From positions 1,856,001 to 1,920,000 of the forward strand of contig CBDCJH010000002.1 of NCBI GenBank assembly GCA_965217775.1: a stretch of 64,000 nucleotides of DNA, read 5' to 3'. The translations under genes and the position numbers were made by a program. Below the pieces are notes generated by a model, which saw only the letters and a list, made by a program, of their open reading frames with translations, did no database searches and was not told where the DNA came from. The first letter of the stretch is position 1, and every line of letters starts with the position of its first letter. Of this stretch, positions 11,835 through 51,710 are shown piece after piece. The stretch is from Acidobacteriota bacterium (GTDB taxonomy: Bacteria > Acidobacteriota > UBA6911 > RPQK01 > JAJDTT01).

Positions 11835-11860
11835 TATAGCGCAAATTCGAGTGGGGCGAA

Positions 11861-13079: not shown

Positions 13080-13224
13080 ATGTCCTCCTGTAGCACACCA
13101 TGGTGTCTAGGTAACACCGATCGCGCGAGGCCGGCTGGATTCGGACCCGCATCCCCTGGGGCGGAACTCAGGAGTTCTGGCGTTGATTTTGCGGGCCTGT
13201 TGATTCGGTAGAGAGGGGGCAACA

Positions 13225-20163: not shown

Positions 20164-20432
20164 CGAACGACATTATATACCCCATTGGGTTAGTTTAGGC
20201 AGTCCCAATCCGTGCGATTGCGTGAGCTGGTCGAGAAGAAGGACGGTCAATTCAGACTTTGGTGAGGGAAAGGCGTCATCGCCCGTAATCGGGAGAAACC
20301 GGAAACGCGACTCGACTACAGAAACTCGACCACGCCGACCCAGAACGACCAGGGGCATGACTCGTGCGATCGGACTTGGCCCCGGACGTGACGCGGACGT
20401 GACCGAAAAAAAGTGACTGTCCCCTTCTCGAC

Positions 20433-20600
20433 GCTGAAGCGCATTGCGGGCAAACCGGTCCGGCTACGGCTGATGATGAAGGACGCCGACCTGTTTTCGC
20501 TGCGGTTTCGTTGATCTGGATGCGCTTGACATTGGCGTCAAGCTGAAGCCCTCTCCGCTCGTCTTGCGCGAACCGCGGAGAGCGGAACCGTCCCTTACTC
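20433..20600 (+). repeat. 3' end of the hydrolase gene plus downstream segment (matches ~14825-14989)
   Basis: LKRIAGKPVRLRLMMKDADLFSLRFR* followed by the same ~85-bp tail as at 14905-14989; bracketed by two junction motifs. Confidence 0.85.
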
Positions 20601-20605
20601 TTCCT

Positions 20606-21004
20606 TTACGTTCTCGCGTCCACACGGCGAAGGTTGCCGCCCCAGCTCAGGATGCGCTCATCGGCCGTGAGCAGACTGTGACCCCCCAGCGCAGTCGCGA
20701 CGATGATGCGGTCGGCTGGATCCGCGTGGAAGTCCTTCAGACTGTTGGCGCGGATGGCAATGTCGCCGTCTACCGGAATCTCGACGAGACCATCCTGGAG
20801 AAGCCGGGTTCGCCACGTTCTGACGTCCTCCAGCAGGCGGATGCGCCCCTTCTCGTGCAACAGAGCCACTTCCCAGAACGAAAACGCCGACGCCGCCAGT
20901 GTGGCTTCCCGTAGTCCCCGTTCCATCAGTCCTCTGGAAAGAGGCCCGATTTGCGGTCCGCCAAGTCTCGACCACAACAGTACGTGAGTGTCCACCAATA
21001 TCAC
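20606..21004 (-). CDS. vapC: VapC PIN-domain toxin
   Basis: VILVDTHVLLW..SAFSFWEVA..HADPADRIIVATA..LLTAD; GTGA overlap with the antitoxin stop. Confidence 0.9.
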   Translation of the reverse strand: MILVDTHVLLWSRLGGPQIGPLSRGLMERGLREATLAASAFSFWEVALLHEKGRIRLLEDVRTWRTRLLQDGLVEIPVDGDIAIRANSLKDFHADPADRIIVATALGGHSLLTADERILSWGGNLRRVDART

Positions 21005-21285
21005 GGATTGGCCACCCGGTCGGGGTTCACCTCGGCTTCCCACTCCAGGTCAATCGGGGAGATGATGTCGCCGATGATTTCGATCCTGTCTCGATCAGCT
21101 CCGAACCAATCCCCGAACCGCTTGCGGTAGGGCAGAAGGCGCGCGGTTGGGCGGCCATTTTTGGTGATCACGATCTCTTCTCCGCTTTCTGCCACTTCGT
21201 CCATCAGCCTGAGGCACGTGGCCTTGAACTCGGACGCCTTGATGGTACGTGATTCACTCGCTCCGTCTCGTTTGGGAACTACCAT
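21001..21285 (-). CDS. Phd/YefM antitoxin
   Basis: IKASEFKATCLRLMDEV..GEEIVITKNGRPTARL. Confidence 0.9.
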   Translation of the reverse strand: MVVPKRDGASESRTIKASEFKATCLRLMDEVAESGEEIVITKNGRPTARLLPYRKRFGDWFGADRDRIEIIGDIISPIDLEWEAEVNPDRVANP

Positions 21286-27556: not shown

Positions 27557-29094
27557 CTGAAGCTCCCGACTCTGATCGACCCCAAGGGCTCGCGCCAGCG
27601 CAACTTGGTGCTGGCCCTGATCATTCAGCGTTTGTTGCATCCCGCCTCCAAGCTGGCCACCACCCGGCTCTGGCACACCACCACCCTGGCCTCCGAGCTC
27701 TCCCTGCAGGACGCCGACGAGGACGACCTGTACGGGGCCATGGACTGGTTGCTCCAACGTCAGAATCGGATCGAGAAGAAGCTGGCCCGGCGGCACCTGG
27801 CCGAAGGCGATCACGTGCTTTACGACCTCTCGAGCAGTTACTACGAAGGCCACACCTGTTCCTTGATGCGATTCGGCCACAGCCGAGACGGCAAACGCGG
27901 CCGGCCCATCGTCGTCTACGGGGTAATGGCCGATGCGGCGGGTTGTCCGGTGGCGATCCAAGCGTATCCCGGCAACACGGGGGATCCGGTCACGGTGCCG
28001 GATCAAGTCGAGAAGTTACGCCAGCGGTTCGGGTTGAAGCGGGTGGTGCTGGTGGGGGACCGGGGGCTGCTGACCGAGACTCAGATCAAGCATCTGAAGC
28101 GGCATCCGGGACTGGGGTGGATCTCGGCCCTGCGCCATGAGGCCATTCGCCAACTGGTGGACGCCCAAGAGGTTCAACCCTCGCTCTTTGACGAGCGTCA
28201 CTTGGCGGAGATCCGGACCGAGGCCTATCCGGGCGAACGGCTCGTCGTCTGTTACAACCCGATGCTGGGGGAGTATCGGCGGGGCAAACGCCAGGACCTG
28301 TTGGCGGAGACGGAGAAGAAGTTGGCCCGGATCGCCCGGGAGGTGGCGCGACGGACCAAGACACCCTTGCTGGCGACCGAGATCGCGGTGAAGGTGGGTC
28401 GGATCAAGAACCGGTACAAGGTGGCCAAGCACTTCGAGATGGTGATCGAAGACGGGCGCTTCGAATACGCCCGGCGCACCGAAGCCATCGCGCGGGAGGC
28501 GCAATTGGACGGGTTCTACATCCTGCGCACCAGCGAACCGGAAGAGCGGTTGGCGACGGCCGATGTGGTGCGCAGCTACAAGAACCTGACGAACGTGGAG
28601 CGGGCCTTCCGCTCACTCAAGACGGTGGACTTGCAGATCCGTCCCATCCGTCACCGGGCCGAGACGCGGGTGCGGTCGCACCTGTTCCTGTGCCTGCTGG
28701 CCTACTACGTCCAGTGGCATCTGCGGCGAGCCCTGGCTCCGTTGCAGTTCGATGACGAGGACTTGGAGGCGCACCGCGCTCGACGGGACCCGGTGCTGAA
28801 AGCCGAGCCGTCGGCCTCGGCCAAACGGAAAAAGACGAAGCGGGAAACCGAGGACGGACTGCCGCTTCACAGCTTCAAGACACTGATGGCGGAGATGGCG
28901 ACGCGTGCCCGTCACCAGTGCCGAACCGCCTCGGACCCGGACGGTCCGAGGCTGCAACGATTGACGGAACCGACGCCGCTGCAGCGACGGGCGCTGGAGT
29001 TGGTCAAGGTGTTCCCAGTGGACAACTAGTCCGCTTCGTGAGTTGTCCCTTTAGAATCAAGGAGTTATCTTGTCTCTGGGTCTGGAACTTCGGG
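27557..29094 (+). mobile_element. IS1634-family element, 5'-truncated; transposase reading frame ends at 29029
   Basis: LYDLSSSYYEG, GHSRDGK, VGDRG, VERAFRSLK, IRPIRH; right end ...GGAACTTCGGG; left end and N-terminus absent, replaced by a junction motif. Confidence 0.9.
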
Positions 29095-38145: not shown

Positions 38146-39843
38146 TTGAAGAACCGGAAAAGGCAGAATCTGCGCAGCCGCGAGTGGTTCGACACCCCCG
38201 AGCTGTACGGGTGGACTCGACAGGCGGCCTTGCAGGGACTCGGGCTGGACCCCGCGGTGTACCGGGACCGTCCCCTCATCGGAATCTGCAACACCTGGAG
38301 CGAGTTGACCCATTGCAATGCCCACCTGCGCACGTTGGCCCAGCGGGTCAAGGAGGGAGTCTGGCAGGCGGGCGGAGTGCCCTTCGAATTTCCGGTCATC
38401 TCATTGGGCGAGTTCAACATGCGCCCCACCTCCATGCTCTTCCGGAACCTCTTGAGCATGGACGTGGAGGAATGCATCCGGGCCAATCCACTGGATGGCG
38501 TCGTCCTTTTGGGAGGATGCGACAAGACCACGCCGGGACTGCTCATGGGAGCCGTGAGCGCGGACCTGCCGGCGATCCTCGTGACCGGCGGACCGCAACT
38601 CACCGCCCACTGGCGGGGCCAGGAGCTGGGATCGTGCACCGATTGCAGGCGCTTCGAGGTCGAACTTCGAGCCGGGAGGATCGGTCAGGAAGACTGGCTG
38701 GATCTCCAGGGCGCCATGATCCGGAGTCCGGGCCACTGCATGACCATGGGCACGGCCTCCACGCTGGCCACGCTGACCGAAGCCCTGGGACTGGCGCTGC
38801 CCGGGAACGCCGCCTATCCGGCGGCCGACTCCCGCCGGACTCGTCTGGCGCACCGGGCCGGACGCCAGATCGTGCGCCTGGTGGAACTGGACCTGAAACC
38901 GTCCCGGCTGCTGAGCGCCGGCTCGTTCGACAACGCCATCCGGACGCTTCACGCCATCGGCGGCTCCACCAACGCCATCGTTCACCTCCTCGCCGTGGCG
39001 GGGAGGACCAACATTCCACTGTCCCTCAAGAGGTTCGACGAACTGTCCCAGACTACGCCGATGCTGTTGGATCTGAAGCCGTCGGGCCGTTTCCTGATGG
39101 AGGACTTCGCCTACGCAGGCGGCGCCCCGGCGCTCTTGCAGGAGATGGCGTCCCTGCTGGATCTGGACCAGCCCACGGTCACCGGCCGGAGCCTGGGCGA
39201 GAACCTCCAGGGAGCCCGCAACGACAATCCGGAAGTCATCCGCACCATGGACCGCCCCCTGGAGGCCTCCGGCGGCCTTGCCGTCCTTCATGGCTCGCTG
39301 GCCCCGGACGGATGCATCATCAAGCACAGCGCCACGACTCCCGAACTCCTGCGCCATCAGGGTCGGGCGGTCGTCTTCGAAGACCACCACGAACTGATGG
39401 AGGGAATCGACGACCCGGACCTGGACGTCGGTCCCGAGGATGTGCTGGTGCTTCGAGGCGCCGGGCCTCTCGGCGGGCCGGGCATGCCCGAGTGGGGCTT
39501 GCTTCCGATCCCTCGTAAGCTGCTCCGGGCGGGCGTTCAGGACATGGTCCGGATCAGCGACTCACGCATCAGCGGCACGGCTCGCGGAACGGTCGTGGTC
39601 CACGTTTGTCCGGAAAGCGAGGCGGGAGGCCCGCTGGCCGCGGTCCGGACGGGCGATCAAATCCGGCTGAACGTCCCGGCCCGGCGATTGGACCTCCTGG
39701 TGGAGCCGCGGGAGATCCAGCGCCGACTTGAACGCGTCCGACCGAGAGTTCGACCGGCCGCAAGAGGTTACCGCCGGCTCTACTTCAAGCACGTCCTGCA
39801 GGCGGACCAGGGATGCGATTTCGACTTCCTGCGGGCGGGGTAA
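38146..39843 (+). CDS. IlvD/Edd family dehydratase (sugar-acid dehydratase, AraD/XylD-like)
   Basis: IGICNTWSELTHCN, GCDKT, GHCMTMGTAS, GGSTN, SDSRISGT. Confidence 0.92.
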   Translation: MKNRKRQNLRSREWFDTPELYGWTRQAALQGLGLDPAVYRDRPLIGICNTWSELTHCNAHLRTLAQRVKEGVWQAGGVPFEFPVISLGEFNMRPTSMLFRNLLSMDVEECIRANPLDGVVLLGGCDKTTPGLLMGAVSADLPAILVTGGPQLTAHWRGQELGSCTDCRRFEVELRAGRIGQEDWLDLQGAMIRSPGHCMTMGTASTLATLTEALGLALPGNAAYPAADSRRTRLAHRAGRQIVRLVELDLKPSRLLSAGSFDNAIRTLHAIGGSTNAIVHLLAVAGRTNIPLSLKRFDELSQTTPMLLDLKPSGRFLMEDFAYAGGAPALLQEMASLLDLDQPTVTGRSLGENLQGARNDNPEVIRTMDRPLEASGGLAVLHGSLAPDGCIIKHSATTPELLRHQGRAVVFEDHHELMEGIDDPDLDVGPEDVLVLRGAGPLGGPGMPEWGLLPIPRKLLRAGVQDMVRISDSRISGTARGTVVVHVCPESEAGGPLAAVRTGDQIRLNVPARRLDLLVEPREIQRRLERVRPRVRPAARGYRRLYFKHVLQADQGCDFDFLRAG

Positions 39844-40196
39844 CACCGCCAAATTCCGTAGAACGGCCAGGAGGGGTTGGATTGGACCTAAACTTAGGGC
39901 ATAGATTAAGGGGAAGATCCATTTCGGGAGTGGTGATGGTGGGCAAACCCATCTCCCGGGGAGTTGGGAGTCAAACAGAGCAGATCATAGCTTATGCCGT
40001 GTGCCATTGGATTGTTGCGCCTGTCGGGTCCAATTGATTTCGTACCATCCAGAAGCATACATATTCCGTATAGATGTTTGGTCGAAGCAATTCCTTTCCC
40101 GTGAGGAATAGGTGCCCGTCAATGTTAAAATCCTCTTCTCTGGTGGACTTGCGACTCAAGGGACAACAAATTGACATCCATCGGACAGGATGACAA

Positions 40197-41060
40197 ATGA
40201 CAAGCAATCAAGGACAGCTTCCGCTTCGAGAGATGACCCCAACGACCTATCACGGTCTACGCAAGGCAGTTATAAACTTGACTAAGGCTTTCCGCAAGGC
40301 AACAACCCAATTGGAGAAGCTCAAGCGGACTACGAACATGAATGAAACTCTGTTAGTGCTTGATAGGACCATTGCTGCCCTACGGGCGATTGGCCTTGAA
40401 GATGCAATCCAGAGATTTGACAGCAAGCGTACCACGTTGGTCCAAAAGAGAGATCAGGCGCTGAAATCTCGGCGTGAGGACCTCGTTCGCTCTGCGAAAG
40501 ATGCCGGGTGGAGAGTAAGGCGGTTGAAGCGCTACGACTTTGTTGGTTGCTTTCAGGTGAACTACCGTCACCAGAAAGTGATACTACGCATAGGGAGTGA
40601 GACGCTCAAAACTCTCGACGAGGTGGATGGAGTGAGCTTATTCTCGCGCCTGCAGGCAGAACTACAGGCGCTGGACACATCCCCGTTTTCGCGTAGCAGC
40701 TTCTTGGGGTCGATCAAGGGGGCTATGACACTCGCCCGAACTCAGGGTGTTGACCGAAATGGCAAAGTGCCTATTCGCAAACTCTTTCCTTTAGTCGTGC
40801 TCGTCCGGCAGAGTCAGGACCAACGCTTCCTGAAGCGGCCTGCCGTCAGGTCTTTCGTCGACTACTCGAGCGCTCAGTTCGTCTATGACTTGGCAAGATT
40901 TGGACGAAACGGGTGGCGAACGGACCAAGGCGAGCGCCTTTGCAACCAACCACCAAACATGGGGTCCATAGCCAAGGGCACGACGGTGACGCTCCCGTCG
41001 CTTAAAGGGGACGGTAGTGGCCGTATACAAATTGGCGCGGTTTGGGTCAAGAAAGGATAG
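40197..41060 (+). CDS. Hypothetical helical protein, first gene of the candidate defence operon
   Basis: 287 aa; coiled-coil N-half; YSSAQFVYDLARF segment; 6 bp from the next gene. Confidence 0.7.
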   Translation: MTSNQGQLPLREMTPTTYHGLRKAVINLTKAFRKATTQLEKLKRTTNMNETLLVLDRTIAALRAIGLEDAIQRFDSKRTTLVQKRDQALKSRREDLVRSAKDAGWRVRRLKRYDFVGCFQVNYRHQKVILRIGSETLKTLDEVDGVSLFSRLQAELQALDTSPFSRSSFLGSIKGAMTLARTQGVDRNGKVPIRKLFPLVVLVRQSQDQRFLKRPAVRSFVDYSSAQFVYDLARFGRNGWRTDQGERLCNQPPNMGSIAKGTTVTLPSLKGDGSGRIQIGAVWVKKG

Positions 41061-41066
41061 TCTGCG

Positions 41067-42257
41067 TTGAAACTCGTCGAGGTGCTGGCCCATCTTGCGG
41101 AGCAAGGTACACCGCCAAATGATGGTGAAGCCGTCTTACGCGTCTCAGCAGGTTTGAACAAGTCCTTGGAAAGGATCGCGAAAGAGACACTTCCATTCAT
41201 CGCCAGCGGGGGCGGCGAACTCCAGTTTGTCTTCGGACCTTATGGACGTGGGAAGACACATTTCCTCAAGGCGCTATCGCAATGTGCGCTGCAACGAGGT
41301 TTCGTTACGGCCTACGTAGACTGTCAAGAAAATCAGAGCCCGTTCAAATCCCTTATCGAAACGTACCGAGCGATCGCTGCCACCATGACACCATCAGGGA
41401 AGCATCAATTCCTCGGCACCTCCGGAATCGCAAAGGTTATCGAAGCGCAATTTATTGGCAGGGACGCGACAGCGCAGCAGGCGCTGGTCGATCGCCTGAA
41501 GAAGAACACAGCTTTAACACCGGATTTCAGAAATCTCGTCATAGCCTACGGTAAAGAAGTATGTCGCGGCGACGAAGATCTTGCCGAACGTCTCGATGCG
41601 CTCTTGGCAGCGAAGCGAACCTACCGCGTTACCCTTGGTTACTTGTACCGAAAGTATCCGGACTTGCCCAGGCCGTTGGGAAAACTCTTTCGGCGCAATG
41701 CAGCCGTCTGGCTACGTGCGGCCCTTTCGCTGCCACAGGCACTCGGATATTCTGGATTACTTGTTCTTTTCGATGAAACCGAAACCGCTTTGCTGCGTAG
41801 CGGACCTCGTCAGAAACAGACCCATCTGGCACATATTCGTACATTTGTCGATCATATGGCGACTGGAGCGTTTCGCGGTTGCGCAGTCTATTACGCCGTT
41901 GCAGAAGAGTTTATTGAGATCGCACATGATAACCTCGCAGCGTTGAGCCAGCGCATAGATCGAGCCAAAGTACCTGAATTGGGGAATAAGCGTAACCCAC
42001 GTGCGGTCTGGGTAGATCTTGACGAGTTGACTGTGCCGGGACCAACGAATCCTTCGTTCTTCATGGAATTGGCTGAATCTATCGTCAATATTGGCCTCGA
42101 GTCTGGCCTGAATCCCTCTGCCGTACCTCCTATCATGGGTCTCCTAAAGAGACTGGCCCACAACCACGCCAGGAGCATAAACGAAGGCAATGTGCGTGAG
42201 TACGTCAAGGAAGCTGCCTCGATAGTTGCAAATAAACTATTTATGGACACGCCGTGA
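41067..42257 (+). CDS. BrxD/DUF2791-like P-loop ATPase 1
   Basis: Walker A FVFGPYGRGKTHFL; Walker B GYSGLLVLFDETE. Confidence 0.8.
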   Translation: MKLVEVLAHLAEQGTPPNDGEAVLRVSAGLNKSLERIAKETLPFIASGGGELQFVFGPYGRGKTHFLKALSQCALQRGFVTAYVDCQENQSPFKSLIETYRAIAATMTPSGKHQFLGTSGIAKVIEAQFIGRDATAQQALVDRLKKNTALTPDFRNLVIAYGKEVCRGDEDLAERLDALLAAKRTYRVTLGYLYRKYPDLPRPLGKLFRRNAAVWLRAALSLPQALGYSGLLVLFDETETALLRSGPRQKQTHLAHIRTFVDHMATGAFRGCAVYYAVAEEFIEIAHDNLAALSQRIDRAKVPELGNKRNPRAVWVDLDELTVPGPTNPSFFMELAESIVNIGLESGLNPSAVPPIMGLLKRLAHNHARSINEGNVREYVKEAASIVANKLFMDTP

Positions 42258-42267
42258 GAGACTAGAT

Positions 42268-43554
42268 ATGAACGAGAATGAAGCAACACAACTCTGGGCG
42301 ACATTGGGAGCGGAAGGCAAATCACCAACAGAGCTTTCGCGTGCGTCACAGGTTCTACCAAGCTACACCGTTGGGATTGATCCGTGGATTGATCGACTTT
42401 CAGGACGGTACCTAAAAAACCTTTGTCGAGAAGCCGCTCACTTCAAGCTTATCTTGGCACCTTATGGCGGAGGAAAGACACACTTCCTTCTAAGTCTTGG
42501 CGGACGGGCACTCTCGGAGAATTTTGCCGTCTCTTACGTCCCTTGTAGCGAGGGCGTAGGGTTGGACAATTCGCTTGCCGTCTACAAGGAAGTTGTCAAA
42601 AACCTACAACTGCCTGACCGACGACGTGGTGTGCGAGTACTCTTGGAAGAAGTCGTCCGCTCAAAACGAGAAGAAATTCGGCGCCTTGGTGTTCCAGAGG
42701 TGGAAGTTGCCTTTCGACGTTGGATGTACACAATTCGCCGAGGCGACTATCCGGAGAACGCCTTTGGACGTGTGATGAAGGCAGCTTTGGAGGCGGCAGA
42801 TTCGGGCGACGACTCGCCTATAGGCGAAGCTGCTTTACGCTGGTTACAGGGGGATCCAGACACTCTCACGAAAACCGAATTGCAGGAGCTGCGCTTGGCT
42901 AGGGTTCCTGCGGCGAGCCGAAAACAATTTGGGCGGGATCTACTACTATCTGCCGTCAAGTTCCTACCCCACGCAGGCGTGCATGGGCTTGTACTTCTAA
43001 TGGATGAAGTAGAGACCCTGTTTCAAGCACGAGGGAAAGCGTTACTCCGGATACTCGCCGCCATGCGTGTCATTCTGGACATGCCAACCGGTGTCCCCGG
43101 CGGTCTTCCATTATTTGGTGTCTTTTCAGCGACACCAGACGTGCTTGAAGAGTTTCGTCGCTACCCGGCTCTAGAGCAACGTATGGCCGTGCGCGGAGCC
43201 ACGTTCGGTGAGGGCAACGACTTGGCCACACAGCTACCCCTCGAAGAGGTTCAGAGTCAAGAAACATTCCTAGCGGAAATCGGTGAAAAGTTGATCGAAG
43301 TCGGGGCAATTGCTACCGGCCATTCATTCGACAACGAATTGCAGAAATCTAATGCTCAACTATTGGCGCATGTGGCCTCCGAGCGAAGCCTCGACGTTGA
43401 TGCTCGCCGAGTATTTATAAAGACTTGGGTTGGCCTGCTTGATTTCCAGCGGGTCGAGGGTGAGCGGGAGTTTGATTTTAACGAACTGGCAGGTCGCTAT
43501 TCAGGTTCGTTTCACTCATTCATAGAAACCGAATCCGAGAGCTATGAGCCGTGA
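42268..43554 (+). CDS. BrxD/DUF2791-like P-loop ATPase 2
   Basis: FKLILAPYGGGKTHFL; ALRWLQG; GLVLLMDEVE; YPALEQR. Confidence 0.85.
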   Translation: MNENEATQLWATLGAEGKSPTELSRASQVLPSYTVGIDPWIDRLSGRYLKNLCREAAHFKLILAPYGGGKTHFLLSLGGRALSENFAVSYVPCSEGVGLDNSLAVYKEVVKNLQLPDRRRGVRVLLEEVVRSKREEIRRLGVPEVEVAFRRWMYTIRRGDYPENAFGRVMKAALEAADSGDDSPIGEAALRWLQGDPDTLTKTELQELRLARVPAASRKQFGRDLLLSAVKFLPHAGVHGLVLLMDEVETLFQARGKALLRILAAMRVILDMPTGVPGGLPLFGVFSATPDVLEEFRRYPALEQRMAVRGATFGEGNDLATQLPLEEVQSQETFLAEIGEKLIEVGAIATGHSFDNELQKSNAQLLAHVASERSLDVDARRVFIKTWVGLLDFQRVEGEREFDFNELAGRYSGSFHSFIETESESYEP

Positions 43555-44912
43555 GATCAGGCGAGAGGATTCAGCACCCAGAACTGGGCGACGGAACAGT
43601 GAAATTCGTTATCTCGCGCGGCGGCAAGGCCGGTGCACAGGTGGACTTTGGCTACATGTCCGCGTGGATATCGCGGGAGGAACTGGGTTTTCGCGAGCAG
43701 CATGACCGATTGCCGGGCCCCATATCAAGCCCGTCAGAAACTGCGGCCACAGAAATCCACCTACCGACATTATCCAATGATGTTGTGGAGGCAAGGCGCG
43801 CAATCCTAGCGCTCAAGCTCGGTCAGGTTCTTGAGGAGAACGTCCTCGATTTGAGTATTGGAACGGACGACATCCGAACCTCATTAGAGCGGGCTGTTGG
43901 CGGTGTCGCCCGTAGGCGACCGGCCAGTATCCTGTTTAAGGGTTCCTGGGGTAGCGGTAAGACCCATCTGCTCACGATGCTGAACAAATTAGCCGCCGAC
44001 GGGGACCTTGCGACGGCGTCGGTAATACTGGATGGCGAAGGTGTCAGATTTTCGGAGCCGATGGGCTTAATGGAGACACTTCTTGGCTCCCTTAGGTATC
44101 CAGGCGAAGCCGTACCGCGGGGCATCAGCGAACCGGTGGTTTCCCTGCGGCGCAAGTTCACCTACAAATATGAGGTGGAGCGGCGTTTGGGTTGGCGGAT
44201 TGCGAATGCGATCTTTCAGGTACCGATGCGTTGTCTGGATGAACCCGACACAATAGACGTGTTAGAAGATTACTTCAGGATGACGTTGCCTGCTACGCAC
44301 GCAAACGTGAAGCTTTGGCGCCTCGGCAATCGGGGAATTGCCCTTCCTCCACTGAAGGCATGGAGGGTCGCAGAAAGGCCTAATCGATTTTGTAATCTCT
44401 TGAAGGGGTGGGCGGAGTTTTGTGCATTAACCGGAGCCAAGGGGCTGGCCGTCGCATTCGACGAAGTAGACGTAGAATACGCGAGCACAATTTCTAACGG
44501 CCATCGGCGCTGGCTACGAAGAAACTTGCTGAAGGCGTTTCGAACAATTCTAAAAAAAAACGTTCCGCTTCTGCTCGCGTTTGGGAGCGCCCCGGCCAGC
44601 GATGTCGATGACGAGAACGACGCCGTCATAGACTTGGTCCGAAGCGTTGGCAGGATGGATCTTGAGATAGAGGTGCCGCAGCCCGATCTTGAGCAAACGC
44701 GGGAACTAGGCCAACGAATAATCGGCTTGTATGCAAAAGCATACCCGGATCGGATGTCCAACGTCGACGTTCAGAAGCTGAAGCTCCTGATCGACCGATT
44801 CGCAGAACATCACCAACGAGGACTTAATCCTGCACCCCGCAACTTCGTGCGCGGGGCGCTTGAACGGCTCGACGTGGCTCCCGGTCTGGAGAGCTATATC
44901 AAAATTGGTTGA
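43551..44912 (+). CDS. BrxD/DUF2791-like P-loop ATPase 3 with N-terminal Tudor-like domain
   Basis: GERIQHPELGDGTV; AILALKLG; GSWGSGKTHLL; GLAVAFDEVD; GTGA overlap with the previous gene. Confidence 0.8.
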   Translation: MRSGERIQHPELGDGTVKFVISRGGKAGAQVDFGYMSAWISREELGFREQHDRLPGPISSPSETAATEIHLPTLSNDVVEARRAILALKLGQVLEENVLDLSIGTDDIRTSLERAVGGVARRRPASILFKGSWGSGKTHLLTMLNKLAADGDLATASVILDGEGVRFSEPMGLMETLLGSLRYPGEAVPRGISEPVVSLRRKFTYKYEVERRLGWRIANAIFQVPMRCLDEPDTIDVLEDYFRMTLPATHANVKLWRLGNRGIALPPLKAWRVAERPNRFCNLLKGWAEFCALTGAKGLAVAFDEVDVEYASTISNGHRRWLRRNLLKAFRTILKKNVPLLLAFGSAPASDVDDENDAVIDLVRSVGRMDLEIEVPQPDLEQTRELGQRIIGLYAKAYPDRMSNVDVQKLKLLIDRFAEHHQRGLNPAPRNFVRGALERLDVAPGLESYIKIG

Positions 44913-44936
44913 GCGCCATATGCGACCGATATAACC

Positions 44937-47123
44937 ATGGCTAATGATAAATATATCGTCAAATCCTTAGGTACGATTGGAAGTGCGTTTTTCGGATCTT
45001 TTCGGACGCTTCGCGAAGTTCAGAGAAGGACGATTCCACCGATCCGTTCAGGGAAAGATGTCCTTGTAGCCTCGGCGACTGCGTCTGGCAAGACCGAAGC
45101 CATAGTGGCACCACTCATTTCAAGGACGCTGGATGGGACGGCAAGAGGCCTGCCCCGGATTCGCGTGCTTTTGACCGCACCAACCCGCGCCCTCGTCAAC
45201 GACTTGGCAGCAAGGATCGAGCCGCCGCTAACGCGGCTCGGATTGAGCTGCGGGCGCCAGACCAGCGATCACCGGGACAAAGGTAAGGAACCGTTCGTAC
45301 TTATCACTACTCCAGAATCGTTCGATTCGATGTTAGTGCGCGATGCGCGGTTGGAGGCTGGGAGGGTGACTGACCATCTACTTGCCGGCGTGTCGGCAGT
45401 ATTCATCGACGAGGCGCACCTCTTCGACGGAACTGCTCGTGGTGACCAAATGTCCTGGCTCCTAGGTCGTCTTCGTCGTCTGCGCCAACTAAATGCGGAC
45501 GGCGGCTCAAGCGACGCAAAGCGTTTACAGGTGTGCGCAGCCAGTGCCACCATCAGCGATCCGGGGGGTCTCGCGTATCGGCTCTTGGGAACCGATGCAG
45601 TCGCGGTCCAAGTTCCAGGCTTGAGGCAGATCGATGTATTCGGAAACTCGGCTGCACCTGACTGGTTTCCACTTGAATCGTCGATAACGATTGAGAACTT
45701 GCGCGATCGTCTGGGAATCGTGACATTCACAAATTTCCTCGAACAGGCGGAGAGACGAATCTGGCAGGCTTTGTCCAGCGGAGACGATGATCGCATGCGA
45801 AAAGCGCTTGTGTTCGTTCCAAGCCGCAAACTATCCGATGAACTCTCCACCCATCTCAATAGCACATTACCCTTGCACCGCGATCTGAAGGTGCTGCCGC
45901 ACCACGGTAGCTTGGCACAGGGTGTCCGGGAAAACTCTGAGCGGACGTTCTCCTCGACGCGCGACGCTGTGCTAGTAGCGACAACTACCTTGGAAGTAGG
46001 TGTCGACATTGGGGATGTGGACTTGGTCGTTCTTGTCGGTTCGCCACCCGGTACGCGCTCATTGTTGCAGCGGATTGGTCGGGCGGGCCGCAGAATCGGC
46101 CGCACTCGAGTCTTGGCTCTTCCTCGGACCGGGATCGAGCTCGCAGCCATCGCAAGCATGCTGATTTCCGCGCGGGACGGGATTCTGGAGCCCGAGGGAT
46201 ACGCTCGCAGGTGGTCCGTGTTCGTCCAACAAGCAGCCAGCTTCGTCGCTCAAGGTAGACCTCGCGGTCGGAGACGATCCGATTTGCTCGATTTAGCGCA
46301 GGATGTCTGGCCAGAGAAAGGGAGGGGAACGCCAGACGAGATCGTGGACCGACTACTCGACGCCGAGTATCTCGTCGAGGGTCGAGGCCGACTTGCGATA
46401 GGTGAGCATTGGGCAGATTTCTTCGACGTTGGTGGTCCGGGTATGCACGCAAATTTCGGATCGTCCAGTGGAGGCATTCCGGTGGTGGACGCCAACACTG
46501 GCGAGGTCGTCGCACACGTTGCTCAGAGGCCTTCCGAAGATAGAGAGATTGCTCTAGGAGGGCAACGATGGGACTTGCAAGCCATCGATGGCGAACTCCT
46601 ACTAAAACCCAAGGGAGCTGGACCTGTTCGCGATAGTTTTCAATACGCGGCGCGGCGTGGTCCGACTGATCTCGAATACGCTGTGCATGTAAGGCGTGGC
46701 TTAGGACTTGGAGAGGACGATGCACCGCTCATAAATTCGCCTCGTGGCTGGATCTGGCTTCATTTTGGTGGCAGCGCATATCAGACATTATTGTGCCATC
46801 TCTTGCCGGGCCTTAGTCCGACCGCTGGGTTGGCTGGAGTGGCGGTTAAGGGAATTCCTAGTGATGGTGAACTAAACCAACTAGCTACTGACCGTGACGA
46901 ATTGCGTGTTGCGGTAGAGGAACATTTTGAGGAACTTGAACGACTACTCGCGGTGGGTCCATATCAGCGTTACCTCACCAAGCATTGTCGTCAACGAGTT
47001 GTGACGGGGCTGTTTGACCTGCCGTCATTCCAAGACTGGCTGAAGACTCGCCGTGTGCGAGAAATAGCACCCGACGATCCGTGCTCGAAATACATATGTA
47101 CAGCACTCGTGGAAAGACGGTAG
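44937..47123 (+). CDS. Lhr-like DEAH-box helicase
   Basis: Q motif LREVQ, TASGKT, PTRAL, TPES, DEAH, SAT, HHGSL, TLEVGVDIG, QRIGRAGR. Confidence 0.9.
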   Translation: MANDKYIVKSLGTIGSAFFGSFRTLREVQRRTIPPIRSGKDVLVASATASGKTEAIVAPLISRTLDGTARGLPRIRVLLTAPTRALVNDLAARIEPPLTRLGLSCGRQTSDHRDKGKEPFVLITTPESFDSMLVRDARLEAGRVTDHLLAGVSAVFIDEAHLFDGTARGDQMSWLLGRLRRLRQLNADGGSSDAKRLQVCAASATISDPGGLAYRLLGTDAVAVQVPGLRQIDVFGNSAAPDWFPLESSITIENLRDRLGIVTFTNFLEQAERRIWQALSSGDDDRMRKALVFVPSRKLSDELSTHLNSTLPLHRDLKVLPHHGSLAQGVRENSERTFSSTRDAVLVATTTLEVGVDIGDVDLVVLVGSPPGTRSLLQRIGRAGRRIGRTRVLALPRTGIELAAIASMLISARDGILEPEGYARRWSVFVQQAASFVAQGRPRGRRRSDLLDLAQDVWPEKGRGTPDEIVDRLLDAEYLVEGRGRLAIGEHWADFFDVGGPGMHANFGSSSGGIPVVDANTGEVVAHVAQRPSEDREIALGGQRWDLQAIDGELLLKPKGAGPVRDSFQYAARRGPTDLEYAVHVRRGLGLGEDDAPLINSPRGWIWLHFGGSAYQTLLCHLLPGLSPTAGLAGVAVKGIPSDGELNQLATDRDELRVAVEEHFEELERLLAVGPYQRYLTKHCRQRVVTGLFDLPSFQDWLKTRRVREIAPDDPCSKYICTALVERR

Positions 47124-47426
47124 CTTAATGGGCACCGTGACGGAACACGAGAGGACAACCTCATCGGGTCAGTCAGGTCAGGGTCCGAGCCACAAACCCA
47201 AGTTGATAGTCATCTACTCTGAGGTGCCAACGCCGCGGCGCGGTTCCACGAAGCTTCGAGGAATTGATCGAGTAAGATAGCGGCCGGTCCGGTCATTGCC
47301 CAACCTAGCTTATGTACCGCAAAGTGGAAAGAACCGCTCCGCAGCCACTCAGACAACCATGGATCGGCTGGGGCCTTACTCCTCGGCTCGTTTTTGAACC
47401 GCATTGATAGAATCGCGATCACCACG

Positions 47427-47684
47427 TCAGGCGCCGAGATCCTGGAACAGTTCCTCGGCGCTGTTGAATCGTTTGCCCCTGCCTTGGTCCAATTCCTCCA
47501 TTGCCTTGGCGGTAGCAGCATTCGGCACCCGGACAGCGAACGGCAGCCGCTTCTCATCTGCAACCCGCAGCAGCAACAAACGAATGGCGTCTGACACCGA
47601 CAAGCCCATTTCATGAAGAGCTTTTGCCGCTCGTGCTTTGGTGTCGCTATCGATCCGTGCGCGTACGACAGTATCGTGACTCAT
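47427..47684 (-). CDS. dinJ: DinJ/RelB antitoxin (no intact toxin partner seen)
   Basis: VVRARID..K.RA..AL..MGLSVSDAIRLLL.RVA.EKRLPF...VPNA.T..AM; palindrome TGTAGCTACA upstream (47713-47722). Confidence 0.85.
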   Translation of the reverse strand: MSHDTVVRARIDSDTKARAAKALHEMGLSVSDAIRLLLLRVADEKRLPFAVRVPNAATAKAMEELDQGRGKRFNSAEELFQDLGA

Positions 47685-47833
47685 CCACATGCCTCCGAGT
47701 TTATAGCTCTATTGTAGCTACATTAGTCCCTCATCGCTACGCTTGGAGGATCCCGGTCAATGGCAGATATGTTCCGTCTACAACTAAGAAAACACTTCGC
47801 TCACTTCAAGGTGGGGGAGCAGGAGCGGCGGCT

Positions 47834-48588
47834 GTGCGCCAGGCTAACTGGCACAAGATAGGCGGTGAAAGTCCGCTGAAACGAAGGATTAACCATCCAC
47901 GTTTCCCCGCGAGCCGTGCGTGGGCATTAGGAGGCTGTCCGAGAACTCGGTTTTCGTCCAAATCGACATCTTTAAGTTATTGATTTATAAGAGGATAGTT
48001 TTTTCGGAGTCGTGAGTTTTCGAGTTCTCGGACAGGCTCCTAGTAAGGGTGTCGGCGAAGCGTCGGTAGCGGTGCGTATGGGCAGGCTATTGAGCACCGA
48101 AAGCTCCATGATCGGAAGCGCCGAGACTGTAGTCGCGGTCGAAGGTAACACTGGCTGGACCGACAGGGTGAGGGACAGCCGGGCTCCGCGGTGTCATAGA
48201 ACCCATGCACGTACGTAAATCTCGTGTCGGGACCTGGGAGGGCTTGCTCTCTCCCCGGCGAGAGCCGGGGCCTTGTGGGAAAGGAGAAAGCCGTAACCCA
48301 TGAGGGGAGAGAGGAAGCAATCGGATTCATCCATGGTAGTGATGAAGCGGGCGAACAAGGAGGGGGAACTCTCTGCGGAGTCCGTGAAGCGAAGGGATAG
48401 AACCAAGGGGAATTCGGCTCACCAAAGTACGGACCGGACCCAGAGCCGGGTAGCCGTGACACAGGCGGGGGTCGGATACGGCTGGCGTCGCAGCCAGCCG
48501 TCATTACCTGAGGTAGGAGCCGTGTGCCTTAACGGGCACGCACGGATCTGCGCGGGGGGCGCTGGGCAACCGGCGTCCCTACCGCGAC
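47834..48588 (+). ncRNA. ORF-less group II intron (IIB-like) inserted in a REP hairpin
   Basis: 5' GTGCG; DI GGCGGTGAAAGTCCGC and TATTGAGC.CCGAAA; GACCTGGGAG; DV GAGCCGTGTGCCTTAACGGGCACGCACGGATC; DVI ending CCCTACCGCGAC; no RT ORF in DIV. Confidence 0.92.
47931..48039. mobile_element. ~110-bp MITE inside intron domain I
   Basis: 19-bp TIRs GAGGCTGTCCGAGAACTCG / CGAGTTCTCGGACAGGCTC; flanks TTAG / CTAG; AT-rich core. Confidence 0.8.
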
Positions 48589-48604
48589 TTCCAGCCGCCG
48601 AATA

Positions 48605-48714
48605 GGAGCGGCGGAATTCTTGCCGCCGAACTCCAGTGGTGCAATGGGATAAAGAGGGAGCGGGGGAATGGAAGAATGGGCGACTGGAAAGTCGCCCCTC
48701 CCGTCGCCCCTCCC
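48605..48714. repeat. GGAG-type REP cluster
   Basis: GGAGCGGCGGAATTCTTGCCGCCG and inverted GGGCGACTGGAAAGTCGCCCCTCC. Confidence 0.8.
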
Positions 48715-48715
48715 G

Positions 48716-50599
48716 TCACTTTTGCCGCAAGCACCAGCGGACGGCGTTCTTCATCAGGCGCTGGTACATGGGATGAAACAGCGGTTCGGCCGGGTGGCCG
48801 CTGGCCAGATGGCAGACTCTTCCCTTCCCGACCTCGCGGACCCAGCCGGCGGGGACTGCGATTCCGTTGTCCATACGACTCTCCAGAATCATGTGGACCT
48901 GACTCTCGTCGTAGAGGACAGGCGTGTGCTGCTCGTCCGCCGTGGTGAAATCGCCGACCCCCTCGGTGATGGGATGGTCCGGGTCCACGACCTCGACGCG
49001 GAAACGCTCGTAGGGTCCGTGGCCGATGTACCGGCCTCCCACCAGCTTCAGGTAGGGTCCGGCGGGAGGATAGAGACCCAGGGAGTTGTGGAGATTCAGG
49101 AAGGAGCCTCCCTTCTCGACGAAATCCGCCACGGCCCGCTCCTGATCCAGGGTCATCCAGGTCTTGATCTCCCCATGAAGGGGATCCACCAGAGTTCTCA
49201 AGAGTTCCCGGCCCTCGCCCACGCGTTCCACTTGACGGCCGTCCCGCAGAATGACCAGCAACTGGACCCGGGACAGGTTCTTCGCGGACAGGGCGTTCAC
49301 GTCCACGGTGAAGTGGGGAGTGACGCCGGAGGCCTGGAACACCAGACTCAGCGCTTTCCGGATCGGAGCGGGTGGATGGGGACTGTCCCCGATCAGGACC
49401 AGCGCATGGGCACTGGAGTCGCCGGGTTGGGGCGGACGGCCGTGGAAGGGAGCGTTGGGGACCGTGAGCTCCCGATAGACATGGGCAACCTGTGGGTCTC
49501 TGGGGCGCGTATGGGTGGTCCAGTACTGCAGTCCGTCGGGAATCCGGACATATTTCTGGACCTCGGGCAGGGAGAATCCGATGGCGATCCCATAGGCGAC
49601 CTCGTCGCGGAGCTCCACCAGGAGGTCCCGCAGCCGTTCCACCATGCCCGAACCGGTCCAGGAACCGAATCCGGGAACTACCTCCCGGGCGCCAAGTTCC
49701 TGGAGGCGCTCCAGAACCTCGATCCAGGCTGCGGTGTCCTTGCCCGCAGGATTGAATCGGATCCCGTTCATGACCAAAGGACCACCGAAAAGGACTTTCT
49801 CTTTCTGGAGATAGAGGGCCCCGGCTCCCTCGTCCCAGACCTCGTCCAGGGGCAAAAACTGGATGGACCGGGCCGAATCTCCCACGAATCCAGGACTCGA
49901 CAGGGCCGTCACCATCGACGGGTCCAGATCCGGCATCCCGGCCAAGAGACGCTCGCGGATCCTGGAGGAAGTGAGGATTTGGGTCACGCCCCCCTTGACC
50001 AGCGCGCCGACCAGAGGAGCGATGGGATCCAACCCCATCGGTTCGGCGGAGCGATACCAGCGCTTCTCCACTGGCTCGTAGGCCGAGGAGGTCCCCCAGG
50101 ATGGATCTTCCCAGATGTGGGTCAAGACCAGACGCCGGGCGGGCCGGATACCCTTGCCCGTGACCCGGTCCAGATAGGCCTCGACCGATCGGCCTCGGGG
50201 CAGGTCGATCAACAATGTCTCCCCATCCAACTCCACCCACCCGCAGTTGGCACTGGCAAATTGGTGGGAGAAGCCGGCGGCGTGAACTCCGGGACCCAGT
50301 TCCGCGTGGTGAGGGAGAAGTTGCGGTTGCGACTCGGCAGTCATCAGTCCTGTGGAGAGTACCAGAATCAACAACAAGCCAAACGGTCCGAGCCTCTTAC
50401 CAGGAGGGGCGATTTCCAGTCGCCTCTTTCTCCGTTCCGCCCTGCGCTCGTTCTCGTCTGTTTCGGCCGGAGTTCGGCGGTTGGAAACCGCCGCTCCCAG
50501 CGACTGACCATCGGGTCCGAGCCTTGAAGAATGCGGGATGGCTCCCAATACACTCGATCCCCCGAAACAAGCTGTCGAATTGGCCCCGTGAAATGACAT
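48716..50599 (-). CDS. MBL-fold + ThuA-like domain protein
   Basis: ANCGWV..ETLLID, LTH, VVPGFG (degenerate MBL); FVEKGGSFLNLH, HPITEG, DEQ, GKGRV..GH (ThuA); AGGAGG RBS at 50599; start uncertain. Confidence 0.75.
   Translation of the reverse strand: MSFHGANSTACFGGSSVLGAIPHSSRLGPDGQSLGAAVSNRRTPAETDENERRAERRKRRLEIAPPGKRLGPFGLLLILVLSTGLMTAESQPQLLPHHAELGPGVHAAGFSHQFASANCGWVELDGETLLIDLPRGRSVEAYLDRVTGKGIRPARRLVLTHIWEDPSWGTSSAYEPVEKRWYRSAEPMGLDPIAPLVGALVKGGVTQILTSSRIRERLLAGMPDLDPSMVTALSSPGFVGDSARSIQFLPLDEVWDEGAGALYLQKEKVLFGGPLVMNGIRFNPAGKDTAAWIEVLERLQELGAREVVPGFGSWTGSGMVERLRDLLVELRDEVAYGIAIGFSLPEVQKYVRIPDGLQYWTTHTRPRDPQVAHVYRELTVPNAPFHGRPPQPGDSSAHALVLIGDSPHPPAPIRKALSLVFQASGVTPHFTVDVNALSAKNLSRVQLLVILRDGRQVERVGEGRELLRTLVDPLHGEIKTWMTLDQERAVADFVEKGGSFLNLHNSLGLYPPAGPYLKLVGGRYIGHGPYERFRVEVVDPDHPITEGVGDFTTADEQHTPVLYDESQVHMILESRMDNGIAVPAGWVREVGKGRVCHLASGHPAEPLFHPMYQRLMKNAVRWCLRQK
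50403..50497. repeat. GGAG-type REP doublet
   Basis: GGAGGGGCGATTTCCAGTCGCC and inverted CGGCGGTTGGAAACCGCCGCTCC. Confidence 0.8.
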
Positions 50600-50726
50600 G
50601 TCGATCCTCCTAATGAACAGGAAGCGGTCTCAGGACGGCCCCAAAGGCCGATCCGGCGTCAGTCTACTATGAGTCCGTGCCTGCCGCGAAAGCCGTCCCG
50701 GTACGCGACGAACCCTGCTTCCCGCG

Positions 50727-51710
50727 TCAAGGGACCAGGACCGCGGCCCCATCGAGTTCGCCCTGCTTCAACCGCCGGAGGGCTTCGTTGGCTTGATCCA
50801 GAGGAAACTCCTCGGTTTCGGTGCGCACCGGCACCCGCGGCGCCACGTCCAGAAACTCGACCGCGTCTTTCCGGGTCAGGTTGGCCACCGAACAGAGCCG
50901 GCGCTCCTCCCAGAGCAGGCGGTAGGGAAACGACGGGATGTCGCTCATGTGGATTCCGCCCAGGACCACCGTTCCTCCCTTGTCCACGGCTTCGAGCGCC
51001 AGCGGCACGAGAGGACCCACCGGAGCGAAGATGATGGCGGCATCCAGCGGTTGCGGCGGTTTCCCATCCGAGCCCCCGGCCCAGACCGCTCCCAGCGAAC
51101 GGGCGAACTCCTGCGCCGTCCGATCGCCGGGACGGGTGAAGGCGTAGACGCTTCTGCCCTGGTGACGGGCCACCTGGGCGACGATATGGGCGGCCGCTCC
51201 GAACCCGTAGAGGCCCAGGCGGCGACCCGGACCGGCCATGACCAGCGACCGATAGCCGATGAGGCCGGCGCACAGGAGTGGGGCCGCCTCCACGTCCGAG
51301 TATTCCTGGGGCATGGGAAAACAGTAGCGCTCGTGGGCCACGACCTCCTCGGCGTAGCCTCCGTTCAACGTATACCCGGTGAACCGGGCCCGCGTACAGA
51401 GATTCTCCCGGTCCGACCGGCAGTAGCCGCACTGCCCGCAGGTCCATCCCAACCAGGGGATTCCGACCCGGTCACCGATGCCGTGCCGCCGCACGCCGGG
51501 ACCCAACTGGGTCACGACACCCACGATTTCATGCCCGGGGATGATGGGTAGCTTGGGGTCGGTCAGATCTCCGTCCACCACGTGGAGGTCGGTCCGGCAC
51601 ACGGCGCAGGCCCGTACCTGAACCCGCACCTGACCCGGCCCCGGCTGCAACGGCGGCAGATCCACCTCCTCCAGGCTCGTCCCCGGCCGCCTCAGGATCA
51701 TGGCCCGCAT
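50727..51710 (-). CDS. Zinc-dependent alcohol dehydrogenase
   Basis: CRTDLH, GHEIVG, CGQCGYC..ENLC, GLYGFGAA. Confidence 0.95.
   Translation of the reverse strand: MRAMILRRPGTSLEEVDLPPLQPGPGQVRVQVRACAVCRTDLHVVDGDLTDPKLPIIPGHEIVGVVTQLGPGVRRHGIGDRVGIPWLGWTCGQCGYCRSDRENLCTRARFTGYTLNGGYAEEVVAHERYCFPMPQEYSDVEAAPLLCAGLIGYRSLVMAGPGRRLGLYGFGAAAHIVAQVARHQGRSVYAFTRPGDRTAQEFARSLGAVWAGGSDGKPPQPLDAAIIFAPVGPLVPLALEAVDKGGTVVLGGIHMSDIPSFPYRLLWEERRLCSVANLTRKDAVEFLDVAPRVPVRTETEEFPLDQANEALRRLKQGELDGAAVLVP

Follow-up and report, generated by a model that had tools for sequence, protein, structure and literature searches.

Three paralogous BrxD-like ATPases and an Lhr-like helicase in a mobile five-gene cassette, a candidate defence system of Acidobacteriota and other bacteria

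Gene content and layout of the cassette

A stretch of 64,000 nucleotides from the genome of an Acidobacteriota bacterium (assembly GCA_965217775.1, contig CBDCJH010000002.1, positions 1,856,001 to 1,920,000; hereafter the window, in whose own numbering coordinates are given) carries five genes, here named A to E, that encode in this order a basic protein of an unnamed family, three ATPases of the BrxD-like PF10923 family and a helicase related to Lhr and BrxHI (Table 1). The five genes recur together, in the same order, in genomes of very different taxonomic labels, and the features described below make them a candidate anti-phage or anti-plasmid defence system.

As an earlier note made from the sequence alone had read them, the genes are co-oriented and tightly packed, all lying on the forward strand between 40197 and 47123 with gaps of 6, 10, -4 and 24 bp. 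These gap lengths follow from taking the ATG at 42268 as the start of gene C, which alignments of orthologues favour over the TTG at 42226 given in the list of open reading frames (ORFs). The same note had seen a drop in guanine-cytosine (GC) content, which indeed falls to 0.51-0.58 across 39.5-48 kb, against 0.63-0.68 on either side, and had placed the cassette between a housekeeping dehydratase and the remnant of a toxin-antitoxin locus; the upstream gene belongs to the ILVD_EDD family (Pfam), and the remnant is a RelB antitoxin gene beside which no toxin ORF can be recognised. When 39700-47800 was scanned for promoters and terminators, fewer sites were found than in shuffled sequence, an uninformative outcome.

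Three ancient ATPase paralogues

All three ATPases pass the gathering score of PF10923 (BrxC_BrxD; cut-off 22.2 bits), with 95.4 bits for B, 103 for C and 60.7 for D, so that their earlier description as BrxD/DUF2791-like is borne out by profile search. Among the PADLOC models they give good matches to BrxD and SngB only, the BrxD scores being 92.4 (B), 78.6 (C) and 40.8 bits (D) and the SngB scores, each below the BrxD score of the same protein, 33.6, 42.8 and 18.3 bits. On the NCBIfam model BREX_BrxD (NF033438), the cut-off of which is 350 bits, they reach 92.3, 79.4 and 40.3 bits, respectively. Gene C finds no match among PDB sequences.

The first reading of Walker A as GPYGRGKT, APYGGGKT and GSWGSGKT is confirmed, and the Walker B motifs are intact too. 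Both motifs contain residues that are invariant among orthologues, namely P58, G60, R61, G62 and K63 together with D236 and E237 in B (19 sequences), Y66-G67-G68-G69-K70-T71 with D246 and E247 in C (15 sequences), and G134, G136 and K137 with D304 and E305 in D (17 sequences). Some 60 residues past Walker B, in the same sets of sequences, B keeps R296 and R299 invariant within the motif ALSQRIER and C keeps an invariant QR that includes R305, while D has no fixed arginine at the corresponding position. Judged by the usual geometry of AAA+ proteins rather than by a structure, the arginines of B and C are candidate arginine fingers.

When did the three ATPases part? A profile of D aligned with a profile of C by hhalign is homologous over 323 columns (probability 98.5%, E-value 1.5e-15), and in a careful IQ-TREE analysis of 53 rows (20 B, 15 C and 17 D sequences plus canonical BrxD) each of the paralogues B, C and D is recovered as a single group, with ultrafast bootstrap and SH-like approximate likelihood ratio test values of 100/100, 99/99 and 100/100, respectively; canonical BrxD sits on a long branch, the placement of which is unsure. 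Since each paralogue constitutes one supported group and D is homologous to C, the triplication predates the spread of the cassette, and what the earlier note had simply counted as a triplicated ATPase is an ancient and fixed set, not a local duplication.

The helicase and the first gene

The helicase encoded by gene E contains DEAD (99.4 bits) and Helicase_C (71.4 bits) domains in Pfam, and its best solved relatives are Lhr structures (5v9x, E-value 4.6e-21, and 7lhl), in agreement with its first description as Lhr-like. The PADLOC ranking is headed by BrxHI (236.9 bits, 1e-70), followed by SngC (183.9 bits, 1.6e-54, a match that spans residues 22-396 only) and then by DpdJ, DrmA and DruE. 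Four of these five best matches, SngC, BrxHI, DruE and DpdJ, belong to a helicase clade that a published phylogeny presents as ‘defined by antiphage immune functions’ (PMC12278908). BLASTP aligns residues 22-490 of E with canonical BrxHI at 30% identity and detects no similarity beyond residue 490; neither Pfam nor BLASTP detected an Lhr-type C-terminal domain by sequence. The best NCBIfam rows are ligase-associated DNA-damage-response helicase and Lhr-type models, all of them far below cut-off, and on the Lhr equivalog NF007284 the protein reaches 75.5 bits against a cut-off of 1496. Conservation is high in the helicase core and poor in residues 600-728.

Gene A, by contrast with its four neighbours, matches nothing in Pfam, PADLOC (E-value ≤0.1), NCBIfam or PHROGs. 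Its family amounts to 151 clusters at 90% identity (E-value ≤0.001) and 89 representatives at 50% identity, and none of the clusters bears a name or a Pfam domain; in the ESM Atlas it is found in ‘hypothetical protein’ clusters only. The earlier note had remarked on the lack of a recognisable TerB domain, and none is present in A or in 30 members of its family, among which no consistent Pfam family of any kind was found at E-values up to 5; a relation of A to TerB was rejected on these grounds. The AlphaFold2 model (mean predicted local distance difference test score, pLDDT, 81.7; predicted TM-score 0.73) shows three long helices (residues 18-102), a five-stranded beta meander (107-140) and a mixed alpha/beta C-terminal part, so that the helical protein of the first description is helical only in part. 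Searched with Foldseek against PDB and BFVD, this model gave no match at an E-value of 0.001 or below and returned generic helical-bundle look-alikes only. The conserved core covers approximately residues 92-280. A is basic, with a median isoelectric point of 9.8 among 17 orthologues, as compared with 9.0 for E and an acidic 5.8 for C and D. No fused form of A occurs among the longer proteins searched, which is weak evidence, and a 484-residue protein (P0096) that had looked like a fusion of A with a PF10923 domain reads as the A-B junction run through with a frameshift and then continued out of frame, and was rejected as evidence of fusion.

A putative Tudor-like domain at the N terminus of D

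Alone among the three ATPases, D carries an N-terminal extension. Its residues 1-47 would form a small barrel, residues 48-79 are a variable linker rich in proline, glutamate and serine, and the ATPase occupies residues 80-453. Among the residues of the extension, H9 and V31 never vary and G13, G15 and the motif D32-F33-G34-Y35 hardly do, whereas the linker varies from 22 to 87 residues across 17 orthologues, with a median identity of 0.26. AlphaFold2, supplied with 16 orthologous fragments, predicts a barrel of four strands with a short helix (pLDDT 76.8).

The best PDB matches of this predicted barrel in Foldseek are the Tudor domains of UvrD, PcrA, CarD and Mfd, at E-values of 0.02-0.1 and TM-scores of 0.55-0.66; none of the 500 matches listed reaches an E-value of 0.001 or below. 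The top match is the C-terminal domain of UvrD bound to a lobe of RNA polymerase (7egs_B, E-value 0.023), and further matches include the Tudor domains of UvrD1 and PcrA, CarD bound to the beta1 domain (4xax_B), and Mfd. Named neighbours in the ESM Atlas (PcrA_UvrD_tudor, the RNA-polymerase-interacting domain family CarD/TRCF RID and the RapA Tudor domain, at 0.78-0.81) point the same way, as a lead only, and no Pfam family, PF21196 included, matches the domain at E-values up to 5. Taken together, the models offer a weak lead that residues 1-47 of D may be a Tudor-like barrel akin to the Tudor domains that bind RNA polymerase. Tudor domains of the PcrA/UvrD type are small barrels of five strands that bind the beta subunit of this enzyme. 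The likeness to UvrD/PcrA, CarD and Mfd lies in the small-barrel fold; the difference from UvrD/PcrA is that the domain of D is joined to an AAA+ ATPase and not to a helicase of superfamily 1, and that its partner is a predicted one only. The barrel is specific to D, because canonical BrxD begins directly with the ATPase.

Conservation, inheritance and spread

A profile built from 30 members of the gene A family led to 24 loci in GTDB species genomes (L001 to L024, L001 being on the contig of the window, from a genome labelled uncultured Acidobacteriota), the gene content of which was established by tblastn with the five window proteins. Most of these loci come from metagenome-assembled genomes (MAGs), so that assembly or binning may lie behind frameshifts and host labels. 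The order A-B-C-D-E is kept in 18 of the 24 (L001-L010, L012, L014, L017-L019, L021, L022 and L024), which answers the call of the earlier note for conserved five-gene synteny; frameshift-like breaks occur in some of these full loci (B in L002, C in L007, several genes in L021). Another four (L011, L013, L015 and L016) retain only A-B or A-B-C and break off at transposases, and two (L020 and L023) are interrupted by contig ends. The host labels span six phyla: Acidobacteriota, Pseudomonadota (alpha, beta and gamma), Binatota, Thermodesulfobacteriota, Planctomycetota and Verrucomicrobiota. Across the loci neighbouring genes abut closely or overlap, and the 4-bp overlap of C and D is kept in 13 of the 15 loci in which both starts could be called.

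In twelve loci each of the five proteins is recovered as one match over 85% or more of the query, and the median pairwise identities over the 66 pairs of these loci are 0.43 for A, 0.45 for D, 0.53 for B, 0.56 for C and 0.58 for E. A and D are thus the fastest-evolving components.

The five gene trees share their major groupings. L014 and L017 group together in the trees of all five genes, and the group of L005, L007, L009 and L010 recurs in all five as well; L004 is paired with L006 in four trees (A, B, C and D), and in the tree of E both belong to one unresolved group; L008 and L022 are neighbours in all trees, resolved as a pair in B, C and D only; and L018, L019 and L024 are outlying in each tree where they are present. 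This agreement indicates that the cassette is inherited as a unit. The shared groupings nevertheless cut across taxonomy: the copy of the window, from an acidobacterium, lies near L002 and L003 and groups with copies from a gammaproteobacterium and a Binatia MAG. Furthermore, a single Vicinamibacterales genome (OZ242003.1) holds two copies, L012 and L014, which every tree assigns to separate lineages; the former has an IS66 transposase between A and B and a shortened E beside a Mu-type transposase. The cassette is also lower in GC content than its flanks in 20 of 21 loci (all but L024). Groupings that ignore taxonomy, two lineages in one genome and low GC content together indicate horizontal transfer with frequent loss.

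One pair of copies stands apart. The B genes of L019 and L020 are almost identical (branch lengths of 0.01), although the two MAGs are labelled Methylobacillus and Syntrophobacteraceae; either a very recent transfer or a binning error would account for this.

Relationship to catalogued systems

Does the cassette belong to a system already described? PADLOC-DB 2.0.0 (2023) contains neither a model for gene A nor a system of this composition. A search of full-text literature for three tandem DUF2791/BrxD-like ATPases with an Lhr-like helicase likewise returned nothing, although supplementary tables might list such neighbourhoods. As a control we used a canonical BREX type 2 locus with PglX, PglZ, BrxD and BrxHI (L025), carried by an Azospirillum plasmid and representing the one match, a distant one, that gene C has on plasmids. 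The BrxD of this control obtains 522.5 bits with the BrxD model and 126.9 with SngB; its BrxHI obtains 850-904 bits with the BrxHI models and 463 with SngC. Because the scores in the window are far below these values, the cassette proteins are only distantly related to the two families and orthologous to neither.

Shango, an anti-phage system established by experiment (10.1101/2022.11.11.516204, 10.1101/2022.05.11.491447), resembles the cassette in having a small first gene, a PF10923-type ATPase and a helicase of the Lhr/BrxHI clade, all co-oriented, and proteins B to E match the SngB and SngC models. The differences are that SngA has a TerB domain, which A lacks; that Shango has one SngB in place of three fixed paralogous ATPases; that D bears a putative Tudor-like domain; and that the SngB scores of 18-43 bits and the SngC score of 184 bits compare with 127 and 463 bits for the canonical BREX type 2 pair.

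With BREX type 2 the cassette shares an ATPase gene immediately upstream of the helicase gene, and BrxD and BrxHI are the best models for B-D and E. BrxD is presented as an ORC/Cdc6 AAA+ ATPase that is tightly paired with BrxHI and is proposed to load or activate it, both proteins being accessory parts of the system (PMC12839542), and an ATPase of the same type with such a proposed helicase-loading role is a further point of likeness (PMC12839542). The differences are nonetheless considerable. The absence of PglX and PglZ, noticed at first reading, extends over the whole 64 kb window (tblastn with the canonical pair; Pfam on 50 window ORFs); PglW is missing as well, no PglY/BrxC was seen by the same means, and the only PglW-like gene at any of the loci is mad6 in L024. 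The BrxD scores of 41-92 bits compare with 522 for the canonical protein and the BrxHI score of 237 with 850-904, and the C-terminal 240 residues of E are unrelated to BrxHI (BLASTP).

ORC/Cdc6 proteins, which load replicative helicases, provide a wider analogy. Like them, the cassette has several paralogous initiator-clade AAA+ subunits in fixed composition beside a helicase, and one subunit (D) without a fixed trans-acting arginine. Unlike the ring hexamer of replication, however, the helicase of the cassette is a monomer-type relative of Lhr from superfamily 2; moreover, no origin-binding winged-helix domain was identified in the cassette ATPases, and their assembly is only predicted.

Two further systems deserve mention. 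Hachiman joins the Ski2-like helicase HamB to the effector HamA, which, as recounted in PMC12278908, had no recognisable domain before its structure was determined; the pairing of a defence helicase with a domainless protein is similar, and it offers a model for A as a hidden effector, whereas Hachiman has no AAA+ ATPases and A has no HamA similarity detectable by PADLOC. MADS (mad1-mad8), which is described as also combining ATPase modules with a PglW-like kinase (PMC13662399), is linked to the cassette by L024, where the two adjoin with mad2, mad5, mad6 and mad7; apart from a match of B to mad8 that is confined to the P-loop (E-value 0.004), none of A to E matches a mad model, and tblastn found no mad2, mad5, mad6 or mad7 in the window.

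Judged by these similarities, the cassette looks like an uncatalogued, distant and elaborated relative of the SngB-SngC dyad of Shango and the BrxD-BrxHI dyad of BREX type 2. It is kin to both because the ATPase-helicase core is shared, and it falls outside both because it lacks what defines either.

Genomic neighbourhood

For 21 loci, up to three gene calls per side were scanned within approximately 10 kb of DNA on each side (106 ORFs in total, after those with a third-position GC content below 0.6 had been dropped). PADLOC matches at an E-value of 1e-8 or below comprise 16 flanking ORFs in eight loci, and 14 in seven loci once a ClpB-like ORF (L003) and a MutY-like one (L013) had been set aside as housekeeping look-alikes; the retained neighbours are listed in Table 1. 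In addition, Pfam shows PIN or RES-Xre toxin-antitoxin genes beside L003, L007 and L008, transposases or integrases beside six loci, and KfrA and IrrE/HTH genes, typical of mobile elements, beside L018.

In two of the 21 loci the gene directly upstream of A encodes a mad2-like DNA methyltransferase. In L024, from Verrucomicrobiae, a block of MADS genes, in which mad6 encodes the PglW-like NERD-kinase, stands head-to-head with the cassette; no mad3/mad4 pair was seen in the L024 DNA examined, and the cassette might stand in for the missing MADS module. In L016, where a transposase has already truncated the cassette, the gene lies on the strand of A and encodes a methyltransferase of the N6_Mtase/Eco57I type that shares 31% identity with the mad2 of L024. 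At E-values up to 1e-4, tblastn with the PglX and PglZ of L025 found nothing in the window or in any of the 24 loci, and tblastn with mad2, mad5, mad6 and mad7 found nothing in the window or in loci other than these two. The five genes are a discrete, conserved unit that lacks PglX, PglZ and TerB; the stand-alone character assumed in the earlier note is qualified by the methyltransferase next to A in these two cases.

Several features of the window itself lie past the cassette or well upstream of it (Table 1). The relB gene is intact, and a three-frame reading of 47100-47440 on the reverse strand gave no nameable intact toxin ORF. It is followed by a group II intron fragment that covers the full length of its Rfam model; no other group II intron family, such as one for domains 5-6, reached gathering score in 39000-51000. 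The fragment looks like a remnant that adds to the mobile-DNA character of the stretch past the cassette. A tRNA-Ser gene falls inside the ORF call at 48719-50599, the start of which is probably over-extended; this tRNA gene is approximately 3.3 kb from the end of gene E and 2 kb from the end of the low-GC stretch, not adjacent to the island, and a repeat search found no convincing att-like direct repeats flanking the island.

Table 1. Features of the window and of other cassette loci, each in its own coordinates; the neighbours listed for the other loci are PADLOC matches, except for the methyltransferase of L016.
Locus	Feature	Coordinates	Strand	Remarks
Window	Gene A	40197-41060	+	Basic protein of an unnamed family, 287 residues, always first in the cassette
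Window	Gene B	41067-42257	+	First PF10923 (BrxD-like, ORC/Cdc6-type AAA+) ATPase, 396 residues
Window	Gene C	42268-43554	+	Second PF10923 ATPase, 428 residues from the ATG at 42268
Window	Gene D	43551-44912	+	Third, most divergent PF10923 ATPase, 453 residues
Window	Putative Tudor-like barrel of D	43551-43691	+	Residues 1-47
Window	Gene E	44937-47123	+	Lhr/BrxHI-like superfamily 2 (DEAH) helicase, 728 residues
Window	RelB antitoxin gene	47427-47690	-	PF04221, 4.7e-23
Window	Group II intron fragment	47973-48203	+	Rfam RF02005 (group-II-D1D4-6), 85.4 bits, E-value 3.7e-23
Window	ORF just past the intron fragment	48012-48215		No Pfam match
Window	ORF just past the intron fragment	48300-48602		No Pfam match
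Window	ORF call	48719-50599	-	ThuA domain at residues 411-623
Window	tRNA-Ser (GGA)	50447-50536	+
Window	RelE-like toxin, PIN toxin with Phd/YefM antitoxin, DDE transposase	19828-21285; 27605-29029	-; +	Further mobile or addiction genes, roughly 11-20 kb ahead of the cassette
L002	HEC-01 A and B
L003	PDC-S02 (YhcG-type nuclease), PDC-S01
L005	PtuB-like protein
L011	PDC-S02, type III restriction enzyme
L016	mad2-like methyltransferase	7394-9607	+
L018	Type I restriction enzyme, Mrr-type PDC-S02
L019	Type III-E CRISPR gRAMP	7884-11528	-	Directly downstream; 824 bits, cut by the locus end
L019	Gene B	1609-2808
L020	Gene B	1608-2798
L024	mad2, mad5, mad6, mad7 (MADS genes)	360-9644	-
L024	Cassette	~9770-16660

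A candidate defence system and its alternatives

We give about an even chance to the reading that this self-contained and horizontally mobile module is an anti-phage or anti-plasmid defence system. Defence is suggested by the best matches of the helicase, by the patchy horizontal spread of the cassette, by its decay through insertion sequences and by the defence genes next to seven of 21 loci.

How might the five proteins act together? Given the ORC/Cdc6-type AAA+ family to which they belong and their co-conservation, B, C and D may assemble into one asymmetric hetero-oligomer, in which B and C would give arginines to neighbouring ATP sites and D, without a fixed arginine, would close one end. 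The assembly might sense a DNA or nucleoprotein cue and load or switch on helicase E, much as ORC/Cdc6 loads the replicative helicase. The Tudor-like barrel of D, on its flexible linker, could tether the machine to a partner, for which RNA polymerase is the leading candidate, and the basic, fast-evolving A would be a nucleic-acid-binding sensor or, as HamA in Hachiman (PMC12278908), a hidden effector. In its complete form this scheme pictures a miniature origin-recognition-like immune machine, that is, an asymmetric loader of three AAA+ proteins held on RNA polymerase by a Tudor tether, which would load an Lhr-like helicase onto transcribed foreign DNA with the new-fold A as a DNA-directed effector; we consider it unlikely that all of these elements hold at once.

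A number of observations weigh against a defence role or against parts of this scheme. None of the five proteins shows a recognisable effector domain of the nuclease, protease, NADase or membrane type (Pfam, PADLOC and NCBIfam; Foldseek for A). Gene A has no copy on 72,556 plasmids, and PHROGs yields no match to the cassette apart from generic helicase families. In 14 of the 21 loci there is no credible PADLOC neighbour within three genes and the surroundings are mostly housekeeping, as are those of the window apart from the orphan relB and the intron fragment; flank gene calls are, in addition, crude in high-GC DNA, and the defence neighbours of the other seven loci are suggestive context rather than an established enrichment. 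As for the scheme, the Tudor assignment is built from Foldseek E-values of 0.02-0.1 and Atlas values of about 0.8, with no Pfam match, and the lack of an arginine finger in D is soft because a basic residue is often found near the position in question. Finally, Lhr is a repair helicase, and Tudor domains of the UvrD/Mfd type belong to repair and transcription factors, so that a housekeeping reading fits the same parts.

That reading would make the cassette a DNA-repair or transcription-conflict module, in which an Lhr-like helicase, recruited through the Tudor domain to stalled RNA polymerase and regulated by the AAA+ proteins, clears R-loops or lesions in the manner of UvrD, Mfd and Lhr. It draws on the solved relatives and the top NCBIfam rows of E (damage-response and Lhr-type models, far below cut-off as these are), on the resemblance of the N-terminal domain of D to UvrD, PcrA, CarD and Mfd, and on the housekeeping surroundings of most loci. 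A repair function nevertheless sits uneasily with a patchy, horizontal distribution in which trees cut across taxonomy and GC content is below that of the flanks in 20 of 21 loci, with insertion sequences that have destroyed the cassette in four of 24 loci and disrupted a fifth (L012), with two divergent copies in one genome and with the fast evolution of A and D; and the best PADLOC matches of the ATPases and the helicase are models of immune systems, not of repair. We therefore regard it as an improbable alternative, albeit the one that fares best.

The cassette could also be the non-autonomous motor branch of a methylation-based system of the BREX type 2 or MADS-like kind, dependent on a methyltransferase and partners encoded elsewhere. 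Such a role would accord with the head-to-head arrangement with mad2, mad5, mad6 and mad7 in L024, with the mad2-like N6 methyltransferase directly upstream of A, on its strand, in L016, and with the accessory status assigned to BrxD and BrxHI in BREX type 2 (PMC12839542). Yet 19 of the 21 loci show no methyltransferase in the stretch examined (approximately 10 kb per side with tblastn, three genes per side with Pfam), and PglX, PglZ and mad2/5/6/7 are missing from the window and from the other loci, which makes this alternative quite improbable. Least probable of all, the cassette might serve the replication or maintenance of a mobile element not yet recognised, its ATPases being ORC-like initiators that accompany a helicase. 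Although the ATPases are of the ORC/Cdc6 type (PMC12839542), the cassette is of lower GC content and transposases, the KfrA/IrrE context of L018 and the intron fragment and orphan antitoxin of the window are at hand, no integrase, relaxase or replication origin travels with the cassette, the flanks vary among loci while the five-gene boundaries are fixed, and the plasmid collection and PHROGs do not contain it.

Implications

The function of the pair of DUF2791 ATPase and Lhr-like helicase common to Shango and BREX type 2 is described in the literature as uncharacterised (PMC12839542). The cassette may be seen as a natural version of this pair in which the single ATPase has been split into three specialised subunits, one of them with a putative tether domain, and from which the TerB, methylase and PglZ partners are gone. 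With the ATPase divided, a tether gained and the partners lost, the division of labour among ATP hydrolysis, helicase binding and cue binding would become readable. If the cassette does protect against phages, it would bring to light a system that is typical of soil Acidobacteriota and of other phyla little studied so far, it would show for the first time an initiator-type AAA+ assembly of heteromeric make-up at work in immunity, and the new protein family of gene A would gain a function. If, further, the ATPases were to act as a loader tethered to RNA polymerase, the cassette would represent a transcription-coupled form of anti-phage surveillance without a catalogued counterpart.

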